Assembly: GCA_045606105.1 (NCBI GenBank)
Contig: JAZURI010000007.1
Span: 37,554 to 101,553, forward strand
DNA from: Spirochaetia bacterium
GTDB lineage: Bacteria; Spirochaetota; Spirochaetia; CADAEX01
Reading direction: 5' to 3'
Length of the DNA: 64,000 bases
Shown piece after piece: positions 37,460 to 64,000 of the stretch. Both the position numbers and the translations under genes were made by a program. The notes below the pieces were generated by a model that searched no databases, had not been told where the DNA came from, and saw nothing but the letters and a program-made list of their open reading frames with translations. Within the stretch, counting starts at the first letter, position 1; each line of letters opens with the position of its first letter.

Positions 37460-37828
37460 ATGATACAGATGCAGACATATCTGAATGTAGCAGATAATAG
37501 CGGAGCTAAAATCGTACAGTGTATCAAGGTTCTTGGCGGAAGCCACAAGAATACAGCCGGAATCGGAGAGATCATTGTAGTAGCTGTAAAAGATGCTATT
37601 CCTAATTCACCTATCAAGAAGGGTGATGTGCATAAGGCAGTTATTGTCAGAACAACCAGTAAGATCAGAAGAAATGACGGAACTTACATCAGATTTGATG
37701 ACAATGCCTGTGTAATTCTGGATGCAAGTCTTGCACCTAAGGGTAAGAGAATTTTTGGACCAGTTGCGAGAGAACTCAGAGATGTAGATCAGATGAAGAT
37801 TATTTCTCTTGCTCCGGAAGTACTTTAG
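37460..37828 (+). CDS. rplN: 50S ribosomal protein L14
   Basis: Starts [17 protein letters not shown]... Conserved L14 sequence. Confidence 0.97.
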
Positions 37829-57236: not shown

Positions 57237-58304
57237 ATGATGCAGGATGTTTTTGAAAAATTGCAGGCTTTACAGGAAGTACTTGAATGCAAGTACAATG
57301 TTGAAAGAGAGCTTGAAGAAATTCCTAAGGCAATAAATACAAAAAAAGAGCTTGTTGCAAGACTCAAGAAGCAGTTTATCGAGAAGAGTGAGCTTCTTGA
57401 AAAGAAGCAGCTTAAGGTAAAAGATCTTAAATCCAGACTCAAGGATGCTGAGGAAAGACGTGGCAAATACGAAAGGGATATGGATATAATCAAGACCCAG
57501 AAGGAATATGAGGTTCTTGACAAGGCAATCAAGGATACAATTCTCGAAGAGCAGCAGCTCCGCAAGGAACTTCTCAAGGAAGAGAAGGAGACTGAAGAGC
57601 AGAATCTTACAGTAGAAAGGGAACAGAATCTTATCAACAGCCAGGAGGAGGAACTCAGGGCCGAAGAGGAAAAGATTGCTGCCGAAAGCGATACAAAGAA
57701 GGCTGAGCTTGAAGAGCTCAACAGAAAGAAGGATGAAATCAGCGAAGGTCTTGATGATGAAATTCTTTTCAAGTTTGAAAGAATCATCAAAAGCAAGGAG
57801 GGAGGACACGGTATTGTTCCTGTAAAGGGACTTGTTTGTTCAGCCTGTCACATGATTCTTCCTGCACAGTTCGTAAATGATGTACGCCAGGGCAATTCCA
57901 TCATGTTCTGCCCATACTGCAGCAGAATTCTCTTCTATGTTGAATCTGAAAACGAAGAAGAAATGACATTCAGCTATAATGAAGACCTCGGTTTCTTCGA
58001 GGATGATGAGGAAAATTCATACGAAGACGAAGAGAATCCATACGATGATGAAGACAGCTATTCTGAAGATGGAGAGGATGAGGATACTTCAATCGACACC
58101 GAAAACGAAGATGATTACTACGACGATGAAACTGCCGAAGAGCAGGATGAAATGCTCGAAGGCGAAGAATTCGGCGATGATTTCGATGAAGAATACGGTG
58201 AAGAAGACGAAGAAGACGAAGACGGTTTCGATGATGATAGCCTCGATGAAATGGGCGAAGACGAGGATGAAGACGACGAAGAGGACGAGGACGACGAGGA
58301 GTAA
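57237..58304 (+). CDS. coiled-coil C4 zinc-ribbon protein (COG1579/DUF164-like) with 120-aa polyacidic tail
   Basis: About 200 aa of coiled coil, then CSACHMILP...FCPYCSRIL, then 120 residues of almost only D/E/Y/G (57942-58301). Confidence 0.7.
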   Translation: MMQDVFEKLQALQEVLECKYNVERELEEIPKAINTKKELVARLKKQFIEKSELLEKKQLKVKDLKSRLKDAEERRGKYERDMDIIKTQKEYEVLDKAIKDTILEEQQLRKELLKEEKETEEQNLTVEREQNLINSQEEELRAEEEKIAAESDTKKAELEELNRKKDEISEGLDDEILFKFERIIKSKEGGHGIVPVKGLVCSACHMILPAQFVNDVRQGNSIMFCPYCSRILFYVESENEEEMTFSYNEDLGFFEDDEENSYEDEENPYDDEDSYSEDGEDEDTSIDTENEDDYYDDETAEEQDEMLEGEEFGDDFDEEYGEEDEEDEDGFDDDSLDEMGEDEDEDDEEDEDDEE

Positions 58305-58308
58305 ATCT

Positions 58309-58662
58309 GAGCAGGTCCTGTTATCGCCGGCATGAGAATGCGGGAGGAAAGTCCGGGCTCCGCAGAGCATGATGCCAGTTAACGGCTGGATGTATCTCCG
58401 GTATCTGCCGGAGGTGCAATAGAGAGTGCCACAGAAAATATACTGCCCCGGTGCTTCGGTTCCGGGGTGAGGGTGAAAAGGCGAGGTAAGAGCTCACCGG
58501 GCAGATGGCAACATCTGCCGCATGGTAAACCTCATCAGGAGCAAGGCCAAACAGCGGAGAACTGCTCGTTCATATCCGCGGGTAGGCTGCTTTAGTAAAC
58601 CGGCAACGGTTTTCATAGATAGATGATAGCATAGAACAGAACCCGGCTTACGGACCTGCTTT
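58309..58662 (+). ncRNA. rnpB: RNase P RNA, bacterial type A
   Basis: Universal motifs GGAGGAAAGTCCGGGCTCC (near the 5' end), GGTAAGAGCTCACC, and ACAGAACCCGGCTTA (near the 3' end). The P1 helix is agcaggtcc (58310-58318) pairing with ggacctgct (58652-58660). A T-run follows. Ends are accurate to +/- a few nt. Confidence 0.9.
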
Positions 58663-58667
58663 TTTAT

Positions 58668-59591: not shown

Positions 59592-60290
59592 TCAGTCTGT
59601 ATTCCTGAGCTTCAGTGGGATGCCTGCATCCCTGACAATTTCTGCCATGGCTTCCAGCCTTGACAGCGGATAAGGGTGTTCTGCAAAGCCTTTGTCCAAT
59701 GTATTTCCAGGAACATATCCTGCCAGTACATAAAGTTCGGTTCCTTTTACAAGAGTACAGATCTTTCTTATGTCATCCTCATCCACGATACCCGGAACCA
59801 CGGTGGTCCTGAACTCATGGCTTATTCCCGAAGCCTTTATGATATCCACGGAGCTGATTATCTTCTCCTGCAGTATTTTTCCTGCACCCTCTTCTCCCGG
59901 CAGCAGCAGACCGTACTTTTCAGGAGAGGTCTTAATATCCATGGCAATATAGTCAGGCTTTATTTCAAGTATTTTTTCGGGAAATGTACCGTTTGTATCC
60001 AGCTTGATCAGATATCCCATTTTCCGTATTTCGGAAACCAGGTCTCCCAGATCGTTGTGAACCAGGGGCTCTCCTCCGGATATACAGACTCCTTCGATGA
60101 CATTCTTTCTTTTTTCAAGGTATGAAAGTACGGAATCAATATTCTCCAGATCATCGGCCCGGTTCAGGACCAGCTCCGGATTATGGCAGTAAGGACAGCG
60201 CAGATTACAACCGGGGAGAAAAATCACGGATGCGACTCTCCCCGGATAATTGATAAGTGTGGTTTTTATAAAACCGGCTCTGGTAATCAC
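59592..60290 (-). CDS. nrdG: anaerobic ribonucleoside-triphosphate reductase activating protein (radical SAM)
   Basis: CNLRCPYCHN radical-SAM cluster motif. The GTG start is 1 nt after the upstream TAA. Last gene of the nrd operon. Confidence 0.88.
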   Translation of the reverse strand: MITRAGFIKTTLINYPGRVASVIFLPGCNLRCPYCHNPELVLNRADDLENIDSVLSYLEKRKNVIEGVCISGGEPLVHNDLGDLVSEIRKMGYLIKLDTNGTFPEKILEIKPDYIAMDIKTSPEKYGLLLPGEEGAGKILQEKIISSVDIIKASGISHEFRTTVVPGIVDEDDIRKICTLVKGTELYVLAGYVPGNTLDKGFAEHPYPLSRLEAMAEIVRDAGIPLKLRNTD

Positions 60291-60291
60291 T

Positions 60292-60771
60292 TTACACTAC
60301 AGCAGCTTCGGCGATACCGAGCTTTTCCTTGATGTCCCTGATGTTATAGGCTCTTGAAAGCTCCTTGCCGTCAGCATTGTAGAAGATGACTGTAGGAACA
60401 GCAAAGATGTTGCTGCCTCTTGCCTTGTCGAGACCTTCCTTGTCGTCTACGGAACAGAAGATTCCGTCCAGGCCTGTTGATGCAATGAAATCCTTTACTG
60501 CAGGACAGTTTGGACAGGTTTTCTTTGTAAAGCATACAAATGAAGCAGGGGCGTTTTCATCGGCCGGAGCTGCGGCTTCCTTGTTTTCAGGATCAAAGCA
60601 TACTCTCTGCTTGAATTCTGATTTTTTACCCTTGTTCCAGTTCTTTACAGATCTGTAGTAGCCTACGATTCTTGTATAAACCTCGGTTTCCTTTCCTTTT
60701 ACATTGCGGAGTTCCTCTCTGCATTCAGCCAGTTCCTTGTTGATTACATCTATATTTCTTTCCTGTGTCAT
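60292..60771 (-). CDS. NrdD glycyl-radical tail fused to a thioredoxin-like CxxC domain
   Basis: Residues 28-60, ETEVYTRIVGYYRSVKNWNKGKKSEFKQRVCFD, match the C-terminal glycyl-radical segment of class III RNRs. A linker PENKEAAAPADENAPA follows. The thioredoxin-like fold has CPNC and the cis-Pro motif AVPT. SD AAGGAG lies 6 nt upstream of the ATG. Confidence 0.75.
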   Translation of the reverse strand: MTQERNIDVINKELAECREELRNVKGKETEVYTRIVGYYRSVKNWNKGKKSEFKQRVCFDPENKEAAAPADENAPASFVCFTKKTCPNCPAVKDFIASTGLDGIFCSVDDKEGLDKARGSNIFAVPTVIFYNADGKELSRAYNIRDIKEKLGIAEAAVV

Positions 60772-60783
60772 AATATTCTCCTT

Positions 60784-62901
60784 TCAAATAAGTGTTACTT
60801 CCGAAAGCTCTGCTTTCTCTTTTTCCAGTGCTGCAATCTTTTCACGCAGCAGCTCTTCCTGCTCCCTTCTGCACTTCTCGCAGGTGAAATGCTCTCCCTT
60901 CAGGTAGCCGTGGATAGGACATACCGAGAAGGTAGGTGAGATTGTGAAGTACGGAAGCCTGTAGTTATAGGCAATGGACTTGACCAGATTCCTGCAGGCC
61001 TGCCAGTCGTCGATGGCCTCACCGATGAAGCCGTGGAATACTGTTCCGCCTGTGTAGAGGGTCTGGAGATCATCCTGGTGATCCAGTGCCTCAAAAATAT
61101 CGGTTGTATAGTTTACCGGAAGCTGTGTGGAGTTTGTGTAGTAAGGATCTGCCTCTCCCGAAGCTATGATTTCAGGATATGCTTCCTTGTCATGCTTTGC
61201 CAGTCTGTAGCTTGTGCTTTCGGCTGGTGTTGCTTCAAGGTTGAAGAGATCTCCTGTTTCCTCCTGGAATTCAGAAAGCTTGTTTCTCATGAAATTGAGG
61301 ATTTCCACCGCAAAGTCCTTTCCTTCCTGTGTGGAGATATCCTTGCCCAGGAAATTGAGGAGACATTCGTTCATACCGCAGATACCGATGGTAGAAAAGT
61401 GGTTGTTGAGGTGCTGCAGGTATCTTTTTGTGTATGGGAAAAGTCCTGTGGTCATGAGACGGTTGATAACCTTTCTCTTGATTACCAGAGATCTGGCTGC
61501 CAGCTTCATGAGGTTTTCCAGTTTCTTGAAAAATTCTTCCTTTGAACCGGAAAGATATCCGATCTTAGGGAGATTGATGGTTACTACACCGATGGAACCG
61601 GTAAATTCGTCTGAGCCGAAAAGTCCTCCGCCCCTTTTTCTGAGCTCTCTCTTGTCCAGCTGGAGTCTGCAGCACATGGAGCGTACATCTCCCGGATTGA
61701 GATTGCTGTTGATGAAGTTCTGGAAGTATGGAGTTCCGTACTTTGCTGTCATTTCGAAAAGAAGTCTTGCATTAGGGGAGTCCCAGTCAAAGCTTCTGGT
61801 GATGTTGTATGTAGGGATAGGATACTGGAAGCCTCTTCCGTTTGCATCTCCGTCCAGCATGAGCTCGATGAAGCACTTGTTGATGATATCCATTTCCCTC
61901 TGACAGTCGCCGTAGGTGAAGTCCATTTCCTTTCCGCCTACAACTGCAGGCTTGTCCTTGAGGTCGTCAGGTACAACCCAGTCCAGGGTAATGTTTGTGA
62001 ACGGTGCCTGTGAACCCCATCTGGATGGAGTGTTTACACCGAAAACAAAGCTCTGGAGCCCCTGCTTTACCTCTTTTTCTCCCAGGTTATCCACCTTTAC
62101 GAAAGGAGCGATATATGTGTCAAAGCTTGAAAGAGCCTGTGCACCTGCCCATTCGTTCTGCATGATTCCCAGGAAGTTGACAATCTGCTGGATCAGTGTA
62201 AGGAGGTGTTTTGCCGGCTTTGATGTGATTTTGTCCGGAACTCCTCCCAGACCCTCTGCAATGAGCTGTCTCAGTGACCAGCCGGCACAGTAGCCGGAGA
62301 ACATTGAAAGGTCGTGGATATGGAAATCTGCGTTCTTGTGGGCATTGGCGATTTCCTCCGGATAGATATTCTTAAGCCAGTAGTTTGCGGTAATGGTTCC
62401 GGAATTGTGGAGAATGAGACCACCCAGTGAGAAGTTCACGTTTGCATTCTCATTTACTCTCCAGTCCGACTGGGACAGATAGCCGTCCATGGTGTTGTTG
62501 ATGTCCAGGATAAGCTTCTTGCTGTCTCTCATGGCCTCGTGCTGGGCTCTGTAAAGGATATATGCCTTTGCAATCTTTGGAACCGATTCCATCATCACCA
62601 CTTCGATGATATCCTGGATTTCCTCGATAGCCGGGGCTGAATTCGGGTGTCTTCCCTGCATGAACTCCCTGAGCTTATCCTCTGTCTTTTCTGTAAGCTT
62701 TTCTGTCAGGTCCTTGTCTTCCATTCCCTGAACCGCACTTACTGCCCTGCTTATGGCACTTGCAATCTTCCATCTGTCATATTTTTCAATGGAGCCGTCT
62801 CTCTTGACAATACGCTTTACAACAAATGAGCTTGCTGTGTTGTCTTCTTCTGATTCAAGATGGAGAAACTCCTTCCAGTCGTTTGTATTTCCCAAAGCCA
62901 T
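60784..62901 (-). CDS. nrdD: anaerobic ribonucleoside-triphosphate reductase catalytic chain, lacking its own glycyl-radical segment
   Basis: ATP-cone-like N-terminus (VVKRDGSIEKYD..KI) and a large NrdD core (RSMCCRLQLD finger-loop region). The C-terminus has CPIHGY...CEKC followed by a coiled-coil tail and TGA. The start is taken at ATG 62901, after GGGAGGAGG. The ORF track starts at TTG 62913. Confidence 0.88.
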   Translation of the reverse strand: MALGNTNDWKEFLHLESEEDNTASSFVVKRIVKRDGSIEKYDRWKIASAISRAVSAVQGMEDKDLTEKLTEKTEDKLREFMQGRHPNSAPAIEEIQDIIEVVMMESVPKIAKAYILYRAQHEAMRDSKKLILDINNTMDGYLSQSDWRVNENANVNFSLGGLILHNSGTITANYWLKNIYPEEIANAHKNADFHIHDLSMFSGYCAGWSLRQLIAEGLGGVPDKITSKPAKHLLTLIQQIVNFLGIMQNEWAGAQALSSFDTYIAPFVKVDNLGEKEVKQGLQSFVFGVNTPSRWGSQAPFTNITLDWVVPDDLKDKPAVVGGKEMDFTYGDCQREMDIINKCFIELMLDGDANGRGFQYPIPTYNITRSFDWDSPNARLLFEMTAKYGTPYFQNFINSNLNPGDVRSMCCRLQLDKRELRKRGGGLFGSDEFTGSIGVVTINLPKIGYLSGSKEEFFKKLENLMKLAARSLVIKRKVINRLMTTGLFPYTKRYLQHLNNHFSTIGICGMNECLLNFLGKDISTQEGKDFAVEILNFMRNKLSEFQEETGDLFNLEATPAESTSYRLAKHDKEAYPEIIASGEADPYYTNSTQLPVNYTTDIFEALDHQDDLQTLYTGGTVFHGFIGEAIDDWQACRNLVKSIAYNYRLPYFTISPTFSVCPIHGYLKGEHFTCEKCRREQEELLREKIAALEKEKAELSEVTLI

Positions 62902-62914
62902 ACCTCCTCCCAAA

Positions 62915-63379
62915 TTACCAGGCTTTTTCGCTTAGCTTTTCAATTTCGCTGACAAATTCGTCAACGTTGTCAAAATGTCTGTAAACTGACGCAAATCTGA
63001 TATAAGCCACCTTATCCAGCTTGAAAATGCTCCGGAGCACCAGTTCTCCCAGCTCTTCGGTGGATATGTCGTTGGTCAGCTGACATCTGAGATAAACCTC
63101 ACTCTCGATCTCTCTCAGGATCTCTCTCAGCCTCTCCTCCGGCACGGCCCGCTTCTCCAGGGATTTGCGTATTCCTCTCTCTATTTTTCCCATATCAAAG
63201 AGCTCCCTGCTTTTATCACGCTTTATTACAGTAAGAGGCGTTTCCTTGATATGCTCGTAGGAGGTGAAGCGATAATGACATGCAAGACATTCCCGTCTTC
63301 TTCTTATGGAAGATCCGTCTACATTCTGCTTGCTTTCAATAACCTTATCGTCAATGCTGCCGCAGGCCGGACATTTCAT
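62915..63379 (-). CDS. nrdR: transcriptional repressor NrdR
   Basis: Zn ribbon MKCPACGS...RRRECLACHYRFT and an ATP-cone domain. SD GGAGG is upstream. Confidence 0.93.
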   Translation of the reverse strand: MKCPACGSIDDKVIESKQNVDGSSIRRRRECLACHYRFTSYEHIKETPLTVIKRDKSRELFDMGKIERGIRKSLEKRAVPEERLREILREIESEVYLRCQLTNDISTEELGELVLRSIFKLDKVAYIRFASVYRHFDNVDEFVSEIEKLSEKAW

Positions 63380-63562
63380 AATGTTCCTCCATTATTACAT
63401 TCGTCAGATATATACCACATATTTAGGGGTATTTTCATTTTTTTTAAAGTTAACACATTATATGAAGGACTGCAACATTAAATTGTAATAAAATGAAAAA
63501 TAGTTTATATTTATTTAGGGCATAAGAATATATACTGCCCCGTACAAGGAAAGAAAGGGAAA

Positions 63563-64000
63563 ATGCTTCTTATTTTAAGTGCTTTAGACAAGGAAATATC
63601 CAGGATTACTGCCTCCCTGTGCCGCAGGAAGGGTATAGATATGGGGGGGAGAACCTTTGTCAGGGGCTTCCTGGAGGGGCAGGAGCTGGTAATGGGAAGT
63701 ACCGGTATGGGTCCCGATGCGGAAAAGGTATGCCTGGAGGCGCTGAAAACCTTCAGACCTGATTATTTTATATTTCTTGGGACGGCAGGGGCCCTTGCTC
63801 CCGGTCTGGTGCAGGGAGATTTCGTGGCAGCCGGAAAAACAGTCTGCCGGGGCGGCGACGGACTGCCTGCCCTTGAGCCGGACAGGAGGCTTCTGGATGC
63901 AGCCCTTTCCTACGACGGGGAGGAAAGATGCCTGGAAGGGACTGTGGTTACAAGTACTGAGGTAATAGACAATCCGGCAGTCAGGGCAGAGCTTTATGAA
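63563..64000 (+). CDS. nucleoside phosphorylase-family protein (MTA/SAH nucleosidase- or futalosine hydrolase-like), runs off the right edge
   Basis: My own translation from ATG 63563 is MLLILSALDKEISRITASL...MGSTGMGPDAEKVCLEALKTFRPDYFIFLGTAGALAPGL..., which fits the PNP_UDP_1-type pattern. It is open to the window end (146 codons). Confidence 0.55.
   Translation, partial: MLLILSALDKEISRITASLCRRKGIDMGGRTFVRGFLEGQELVMGSTGMGPDAEKVCLEALKTFRPDYFIFLGTAGALAPGLVQGDFVAAGKTVCRGGDGLPALEPDRRLLDAALSYDGEERCLEGTVVTSTEVIDNPAVRAELYE

Follow-up and report, generated by a model that had tools for sequence, protein, structure and literature searches.

The window analysed here, meaning the whole 64,000-nucleotide (nt) stretch from position 37,554 to 101,553 of contig JAZURI010000007.1 (assembly GCA_045606105.1, a Spirochaetia bacterium), contains on its minus strand a gene cluster for the anaerobic, oxygen-sensitive class III ribonucleotide reductase (RNR), NrdD, whose glycyl-radical domain is encoded apart from the catalytic barrel and is followed on the same chain by a thioredoxin-like domain. 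Four tightly packed genes make up the cluster (Table 1): nrdR, an nrdD open reading frame (ORF) of 709 amino acids (aa), a small ORF of 159 aa and the activase gene nrdG; this order is kept in most related loci whose flanks are present, with nrdG in the same position as in the window. Residue 75 of the small ORF begins at 60549 and its stop codon, TAA, lies at 60294-60292; the interval 60292-60549, in which a preliminary description of this DNA had placed a redoxin domain, thus holds residues 75-159 and the stop.

A class III ribonucleotide reductase in two polypeptides

Only both ORFs combined, with NrdG2 adjacent, make up a class III RNR of the PRK08270 type. The 709-aa protein matches Pfam NRDD over model positions 1-532 of 562 only and has no glycyl-radical domain; it carries an ATP-cone at residues 34-126 and scores 1087 bits against NF006126. 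The rest of the model is found on the small ORF, whose residues 27-59 match positions 531-562 of 562, the glycyl-radical tail (E 2.9e-9), and whose RIVGYYR motif is invariant among homologues and related loci. The barrel and the radical domain therefore lie on separate polypeptides. Behind the radical segment, as the preliminary description had read it, comes a low-complexity linker (PENKEAAAPADENAPA, residues 61-76) that AlphaFold2 (AF2) models with low confidence, and then the redoxin domain, which places redoxin and NrdD glycyl-radical motif on one polypeptide with a disordered linker between them; the other two peptides quoted there, SFVCFTKKTCPNCPAVKDFIAS and NIFAVPTVIFYNADGKELS, are also present.

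Taken alone, the junction in the window (60769-60870) could suggest an artefact, that is, a pseudogenized or misassembled nrdD with an erroneous or read-through TGA and a chance CxxC tail, because the small ORF is in the same frame as the large one and its ATG comes just 12 nt after a single TGA. We regard this as extremely improbable. Large and small ORFs are separate in 78 of 79 loci and lie in different frames in 56 of the 79, with gaps of -4 to 357 nt; the stop codon of the large subunit is TAA (60 loci), TGA (13) or TAG (6), and most of the 78 split loci have a ribosome-binding site of the GGAGG type ahead of the small ORF. The exact 159-aa protein occurs on 11 contigs, its cluster at 90% identity has 12 members, and the protein sequence is strongly conserved over 159 clusters (50% identity). 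That the in-frame TGA is read through or recoded was likewise considered and ruled out, since the relatives mostly use TAA, differ in frame and have a ribosome-binding site of their own; by the same evidence the in-frame placement in the window is a coincidence.

Large-subunit homologues at 75-97% identity, that of Marispirochaeta aestuarii included, end in a CxxC followed by a helix, and all lack the radical domain, indicating that the split is clade-wide; M. aestuarii also has the small ORF. Single-chain relatives, by contrast, run from the zinc ribbon directly into the radical motif (CPKCKAQTEVYARIVGYY in L036/P0311 and CPTCSTDTEVYSRIVGYY in L090, two loci described below). Neither the ~28-aa helix that closes the large subunit nor the ~27-aa helix that opens the small one is found in them, which marks both helices as split-specific. 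The C-terminal helix was present in six of six split large subunits read, again including M. aestuarii, and we infer that the two helices pair and so hold the halves together.

A minimal redoxin behind the glycyl-radical domain

The preliminary description had recognized in the small ORF a thioredoxin fold with a CxxC at a helix N-terminus and a cis-Pro, and this was borne out by profile searches against the PDB, by AF2 and by Foldseek. The single sequence stays under the Pfam thresholds, both for Glutaredoxin (PF00462; E 1.4e-4, 22.4 bits against a cut-off of 22.9) and for Thioredoxin_2 (PF13098; E 1.2e-3, 19.6 bits against 27), whereas a family profile reaches a best E of 7e-7; many homologues have precomputed PF00462 or PF13098 matches, which puts the family at the edge of both models. 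Built from 19 homologous domains, this profile matched 130 distinct PDB sequences at E<=1, and the 60 listed are all thioredoxin-fold proteins. The best matches, glutaredoxin 7c10 (7e-7) and the M. jannaschii thioredoxin MJ0307 (1fo5, 1.7e-6), are together with Mt0807 (1nho, 5e-3) the closest solved sequence relatives; E. coli NrdH (1h75) reached an E of only 0.024.

With the family alignment, AF2 modelled residues 77-151 at a predicted local distance difference test score (pLDDT) of ~90 as beta-alpha-beta-alpha-beta-beta-alpha, with strands at 77-82, 102-107, 127-131 and 137-141 and helices at 89-99, 111-119 and 144-151; C86 and C89 lie at the start of the first helix and P126 immediately ahead of the third strand. 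Foldseek found 114 matches in the PDB at E<=1e-3, and the 50 listed, among them Treponema pallidum thioredoxin, are all of the thioredoxin fold at a probability of 1.00. Eleven residues are invariant in 25 homologues (41-79% identity): C86, C89, P90, V92, K93, D109, G113, A117, P126, T127 and R140. All 250 proteins that have both the radical and the redox motif retain a CxxC (CPNC in 230, other CPxC in 18, CANC in 1, CRNC in 1), and none is a monothiol variant; by these counts the CxxC is conserved far beyond chance.

Classical glutathione (GSH)-dependent glutaredoxins have a CPYC-type motif together with TVP and GGxdD glutathione-binding motifs, and NrdH redoxins have CVQC together with WSGFRP. 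Motif inspection found neither set in the domain, which has CPNC, a cis-Pro context of (A/S/V/T)PTV rather than TVP, no GGxdD, no CVQC and no WSGFRP, and is not a 105-aa WCGPC thioredoxin either. It scores 15.5 bits against the NCBIfam model of the MJ0307 thioredoxin (TIGR00411; cut-off 92.75) and so lies outside the MJ0307 equivalog. Judged by predicted structure and sequence, the domain is a minimal redoxin of ~80 aa, nearest to the MJ0307 type: like MJ0307, Mt0807 and 7c10, it has ~80-85 aa, a four-stranded beta-alpha-beta-alpha-beta-beta-alpha fold and a CPxC motif. Those three are free proteins, unlike the fused spirochaete domain.

Table 1. Features of the nrdR-nrdD-nrdG cluster in the window, in the direction of transcription (window coordinates)
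Feature	Position	Strand	Evidence or remark
nrdR, transcriptional repressor of RNR genes, first in the cluster	62915..63379	-	TIGR00244 NrdR, E 1.5e-49; Pfam Zn_ribbon_NrdR + ATP-cone
nrdD large subunit, 709 aa: ATP-cone, catalytic barrel, Zn site	60784..62913	-	Pfam NRDD, NF006126
C209, beta-A active-site Cys (GYCAGW)	62287..62289	-	Equivalent to T. maritima C125; GYCAGW in 76/79 loci
Finger loop M413-C414-C415-R416	61666..61677	-	Equivalent to T. maritima S328-C329-C330-R331; MCCR in 78/79 loci
E560 (FNLEATPAE), candidate proton source	61234..61236	-	Equivalent to T. maritima E495 (FNIEQVPAE); FNLEATPAE in 78/79 loci
Zn-ribbon ligands C665, H668, C678, C681 (CPIH...CEKC)	60871..60921	-	Sequence and alignment to the T. 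maritima Zn site
Large-subunit C-terminal helix, split-specific (RREQEELLREKIAALEKEKAELSEVTLI)	60787..60870	-	Absent from single-chain relatives
Large-subunit stop TGA	60784-60786	-	
Shine-Dalgarno AAGGAG	60778..60783	-	6 nt ahead of the small-ORF ATG
Small subunit, 159 aa: helix, glycyl-radical domain, linker, thioredoxin-like domain	60292..60771	-	
N-terminal helix, residues 1-27, split-specific	60691..60771	-	AF2 helix at 7-22; absent from single-chain forms
Glycyl-radical domain, residues 28-59 (ETEVYTRIVGYYRSVKNWNKGKKSEFKQRVCF)	60595..60690	-	Pfam NRDD; C-termini of TIGR02487 and NF006358
G37, glycyl-radical site	60661-60663	-	RIVGYY motif
Low-complexity linker, residues 60-76 (DPENKEAAAPADENAPA), 17 aa	60544..60594	-	pLDDT 52-68
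Thioredoxin-fold domain, residues 77-151, ~75 aa	60319..60543	-	AF2, Foldseek, profile search against the PDB
Redox motif C86-P87-N88-C89 (TGT CCA AAC TGT)	60505..60516	-	Cysteines invariant
P126, cis-Pro (VPT)	60394..60396	-	P126 and T127 invariant; directly before strand beta3, residues 127-131
nrdG activase (radical SAM), GTG start 1 nt past the small-ORF stop	59592..60290	-	TIGR02495 NrdG2, E 3.5e-55

Distribution and alternative layouts

At E<=1e-3 a search with the small ORF gave 1119 relatives, the best 120 of which are all 127-243 aa long, and an exhaustive profile search of 1.84 billion representatives at E<=1e-30 gave the 159 clusters mentioned above, the best 150 all 125-345 aa long. 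The preliminary description had asked whether such an extension might be common in ordinary single-chain NrdDs; given these lengths it is not a common feature of them, although a single chain of 885 aa with the tail does exist. Automated annotation has labelled the proteins variously as 'Glutaredoxin', 'thiol reductase thioredoxin', 'thioredoxin family protein', 'anaerobic ribonucleoside-triphosphate reductase' and 'hypothetical protein'.

A species-level scan (one genome per species) yielded 307 loci with the motif, and the best 80 of these served as our locus sample, which means that the taxonomic range outside Spirochaetia is under-sampled. Nearly all of the best 80 are from Treponema or other Spirochaetia; the carriers include cultured hosts, namely T. 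lecithinolyticum ATCC 700332, T. bryantii XBD1002 and Marispirochaeta aestuarii, and also a T. berlinense metagenome-assembled genome (MAG). Judged from these loci, a small subunit consisting of a glycyl-radical domain and a thioredoxin-like domain (GRD-Trx) is the rule in Treponema and other Spirochaetia. The exceptions among the best 80 are one MAG labelled Woesearchaeota and one contig labelled Oscillospiraceae. The latter (L054), the sole non-spirochaete bacterial label among them, has a stand-alone small-subunit gene resembling P0027, a family described below; at 2.4 kb the contig is very short, and it is probably mis-binned or mobile sequence.

Four layouts were found. The window and most loci have a large subunit followed by GRD-Trx. 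On 123 contigs NrdD, radical domain, linker and redoxin form a single chain of 885-889 aa (P0307/P0311; positions 1577-4246 of L036, the mouse-gut Treponema MGBC126140); this chain falls in the same 90% cluster as split large subunits of 705 aa, indicating that the fusion or fission is evolutionarily recent. A third layout (L088, 4736-5267) has the large subunit, an 84-aa radical domain, a free 88-aa redoxin and nrdG in succession. In the fourth, from the Woesearchaeota-labelled MAG (L090, 3845-6240), NrdD is unsplit (719 aa); next come a free CPNC redoxin of 79 aa, 48% identical to the window domain and with a start that overlaps the nrdD stop, and then nrdG. Fusion, fission and adjacency thus all keep the redoxin with NrdD, a Rosetta-stone pattern that argues for a dedicated NrdD partner.

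Active-site residues of the large subunit

To establish residue equivalences, the NrdD core was aligned to the Thermotoga maritima structure sequences, and conservation was counted over the 79 loci (Table 1). In single-cysteine MGCR enzymes formate is used via a Met-Cys thiosulfuranyl radical (Burnim et al., PMC9669993); the Neisseria bacilliformis NrdD, with SCCR and a Glu, forms a disulfide that thioredoxin reduces (PMC9669993); and most double-cysteine enzymes keep the Met and have the components for either formate or thioredoxin (Burnim et al., PMC9669993). The window NrdD is of this MCCR majority double-cysteine type and has the Glu as well, at a position (E560) where the formate-type NrdD of Prevotella copri (P. 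copri) has Leu. The preliminary description had predicted a disulfide-forming, formate-independent subtype, and this stands in part: the beta-A Cys, the second finger-loop Cys and the Glu are all present, but the loop reads MCCR, not SCCR. In this NrdD clade the zinc site has the form CxxH...CxxC, with a His at one ligand position; other NrdDs are expected to have four-cysteine zinc sites.

A proposed tethered reductant and its alternatives

On the strength of the architecture and the gene context we favour, with moderate confidence, the reading that the CPNC domain is the tethered turnover reductant of a two-polypeptide class III RNR. NrdG would make the glycyl radical on G37 of a small subunit docked in the barrel of the large one; during turnover a disulfide would form between C209 and either C414 or C415 of the finger loop, E560 supplying the proton; and the tethered CPNC domain would then swing in, re-reduce this disulfide by thiol-disulfide exchange and itself be re-reduced by a system of general use in the cell, NADPH-thioredoxin reductase being the likeliest. 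The tether would make the domain a dedicated 1:1 reductant at high local concentration. In the 250 proteins the linker measures 16-178 aa, with a median of 39, and is enriched in A, E, S, D, T and P; its disorder and highly variable length fit a swinging arm or flexible tether. There are precedents: thioredoxin is the reductant of N. bacilliformis NrdD, with Glu438 proposed as base (PMC4390871, PMC9669993), an NrdH-like redoxin serves NrdD3 (PMC9176816), and a glutaredoxin (Grx) fused to NrdB is an efficient RNR reductant (PMC6187632).

Several observations weigh against a turnover role for the domain. The formate-type Met413 is retained, so formate may remain an alternative reductant and the enzyme need not be formate-independent; T. 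maritima NrdD is unable to use E. coli thioredoxin (PMC4493059), and redoxin use can therefore not be generalized from residues alone. Neither a thioredoxin reductase gene nor another reductase gene was found in the operon. The window linker, at 16-17 aa, is the shortest among the 250 proteins, which limits its reach, and an AF2 model of the natural single chain P0311, made with long sequences only, had a mean pLDDT of 63.5, with residues 704-885 below 50. For E. coli NrdD, moreover, thioredoxin is reported to serve activation as well, a role outside turnover (Padovani 2001, as cited in PMC4390871).

This activating role is what a second account builds on, in which the CPNC domain keeps the zinc-site, finger-loop or beta-A cysteines reduced so that NrdG can install the radical, or re-reduces them after oxidative stress, while formate, with Met413 and C209, is the turnover reductant. 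It would explain why Met413 is kept in 78 of 79 loci, and it sits well with a domain on the very polypeptide that NrdG acts on, with nrdG 1 nt downstream, and with the transient exposure to oxygen of many of the hosts, which are spirochaetes of gut and rumen. We nevertheless consider it unlikely, because it leaves the strict conservation of the second Cys and the Glu unexplained, because occasional upkeep is normally done by the general thioredoxin of the cell, and because a covalent 1:1 tether in hundreds of species better fits a stoichiometric need at each turnover. Less probable still is a role outside electron transfer, as a docking or assembly module, a recruiter of NrdG, or a thiol quencher or protector of the glycyl radical under oxygen. 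A split enzyme does require additional interfaces, thioredoxin folds are often reused for binding, and the linker in the window is short; but the cis-Pro and the two cysteines show practically no variation, and none of 250 proteins is monothiol or Cys-less, a pattern typical of catalytic dithiol redoxins and not of scaffolds. The free 79-88-aa form beside an unsplit NrdD shows that the domain is not needed to assemble split halves, for which the split-specific helices are in any case the better candidates.

The tethered-reductant reading bears on two questions, namely how electrons are delivered to the buried active site of redoxin-dependent NrdDs and which reductant the MCCR-plus-Glu group uses. 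Genetics answers these in part, in that a dedicated redoxin is joined 1:1 to the radical domain of an MCCR-plus-Glu enzyme in hundreds of species. The system could serve as a self-contained one for mapping the electron path, with the variable linker length as a natural ruler, and the split confines the glycyl radical to a chain of 17 kDa, which is convenient for electron paramagnetic resonance and structural work.

Stand-alone copies of the small subunit

Some copies of the small-subunit gene stand alone, with no large-subunit gene inside the 5-10 kb flanks read. One (L004/L005, 5001-5447; family P0027, 176 member sequences) lies on a phage-like contig, next to an RNA ligase (phrog_968), an HNH homing endonuclease and an Ig-domain structural protein, and has no nrdD or nrdG within its 5-kb flanks. 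An IMG/VR scan for the domain gave one pattern match and no relative, so this phage-like contig has no curated viral record behind it. Another (P0082; L086 10001-10471 and L087 1625-2095) lies in a plasmid-like or integrative-and-conjugative-element-like region of a Treponema MAG, surrounded by TrbL, Replicase/PriCT_1, ParA-like, SSB, WYL and PDDEXK genes, and may be a mobile spare radical subunit.

Such mobile copies suggest that radical subunits may be exchangeable. By analogy, and only tentatively, we propose that spirochaete class III RNR is an obligate two-subunit enzyme whose 17-25-kDa small subunit would be a replaceable cartridge holding the oxygen-labile radical together with its reductant, with the copies on mobile elements plugging into the host large subunit; we think this rather doubtful at present. 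GrcA (YfiD) is a small autonomous glycyl-radical protein that inserts into the pyruvate formate-lyase barrel. If the cartridge proposal were true, only the small subunit would need replacing after oxygen cleavage at the radical site, and a GrcA-like rescue would extend to ribonucleotide reduction and be exploited by mobile elements.

Surroundings of the operon

A degenerate consensus search allowing three mismatches found no NrdR box upstream of nrdR and nrdD (window 63380-63620); two matches elsewhere in the window are at chance level, and neither is near the operon. On the opposite strand, one gene away from nrdG, lies a full-length bacterial class A RNase P RNA (58308-58666, plus strand, 272 bits), between a Zn_ribbon_9 gene and a TPR gene. 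Also on the plus strand, positions 57237-58304 encode a 355-aa protein whose N-terminal part is a coiled coil and which also has a zinc ribbon (CxxC...CxxC) and an extremely acidic, D/E-rich tail of ~120 aa; its syntenic counterpart in two related loci (L001/L002) has Pfam Zn_ribbon_9. Upstream of this gene is rpoD, with dnaG further on, an arrangement shared with the same two loci.

Comparison with known systems

Thioredoxin as a class III reductant, operon-encoded NrdH-like redoxins, Grx-RNR fusions and split RNRs are all already known, as are phage nrdD genes split by introns or inteins. The preliminary description took the present architecture to be undescribed, and our literature search indeed found no paper on it: no published description of a class III RNR with its radical domain as a separate small subunit, no described case of a glycyl radical on a separate small RNR polypeptide, and no published C-terminal redoxin fusion to an NrdD radical domain, although the supplementary genome-context tables of Wei 2014/2015 could mention spirochaete redoxin neighbours. 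A 2018 survey of RefSeq for Grx-RNR fusions (PMC6187632) includes neither spirochaete proteins nor redoxins fused C-terminally to NrdD; spirochaetes are probably missing from it because the small protein has only ~32 NrdD residues and a redoxin below the Pfam cut-off.

Among the closest parallels is N. bacilliformis NrdD2 (Wei et al. 2014, as cited in PMC9669993 and PMC4390871), which has the double-Cys finger loop, the beta-A Cys and the active-site Glu, and whose turnover disulfide is, according to these citing papers, reduced by a thioredoxin-fold protein, the scheme we propose for the window enzyme. As described there, it is a single chain that uses the free general thioredoxin of the cell, with thioredoxin reductase, and has SCCR without the Met, whereas the window enzyme is split, has MCCR and carries a dedicated ~80-aa CPNC domain behind its glycyl-radical domain. 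Methanosarcina barkeri NrdD3 (Wei et al. 2015, as cited in PMC9176816) shares with the spirochaete system a small dedicated thioredoxin-like protein encoded with nrdD; in that account the redoxin is separate, and a dedicated ferredoxin:disulfide reductase is involved, none of which is encoded in the spirochaete operon. NrdD3 also has QCCR/A without the Glu (PMC9669993), unlike the MCCR and Glu of the window enzyme.

Grx-RNR fusions resemble the small subunit in that a redoxin is fused to an RNR component, and the F. ignava fusion sits on the radical-harbouring subunit and is an efficient reductant (PMC6187632); they differ in being N-terminal and in using bona fide GSH-type glutaredoxins, and the F. 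ignava enzyme is of class I (PMC6187632). One N-terminal grx::nrdD is known, from a Lachnospiraceae genome (PMC6187632). As in the window, the catalytic chain is divided between two genes whose products reassemble in the split class II NrdJa/NrdJb and in the genes-in-pieces NrdA of Aeromonas phage Aeh1 (PMC5704485, PMC9669993, PMC2988022). In NrdJa/b the separated C-terminal piece has, in addition, a cysteine-rich domain that relays reducing equivalents. Both systems belong to other RNR classes, and their separated piece has neither a radical site nor a thioredoxin fold.

GrcA, finally, serves as a spare for an enzyme with a radical domain of its own, and it has no redoxin; the small subunit of the window enzyme, in contrast, carries the only radical domain there is.

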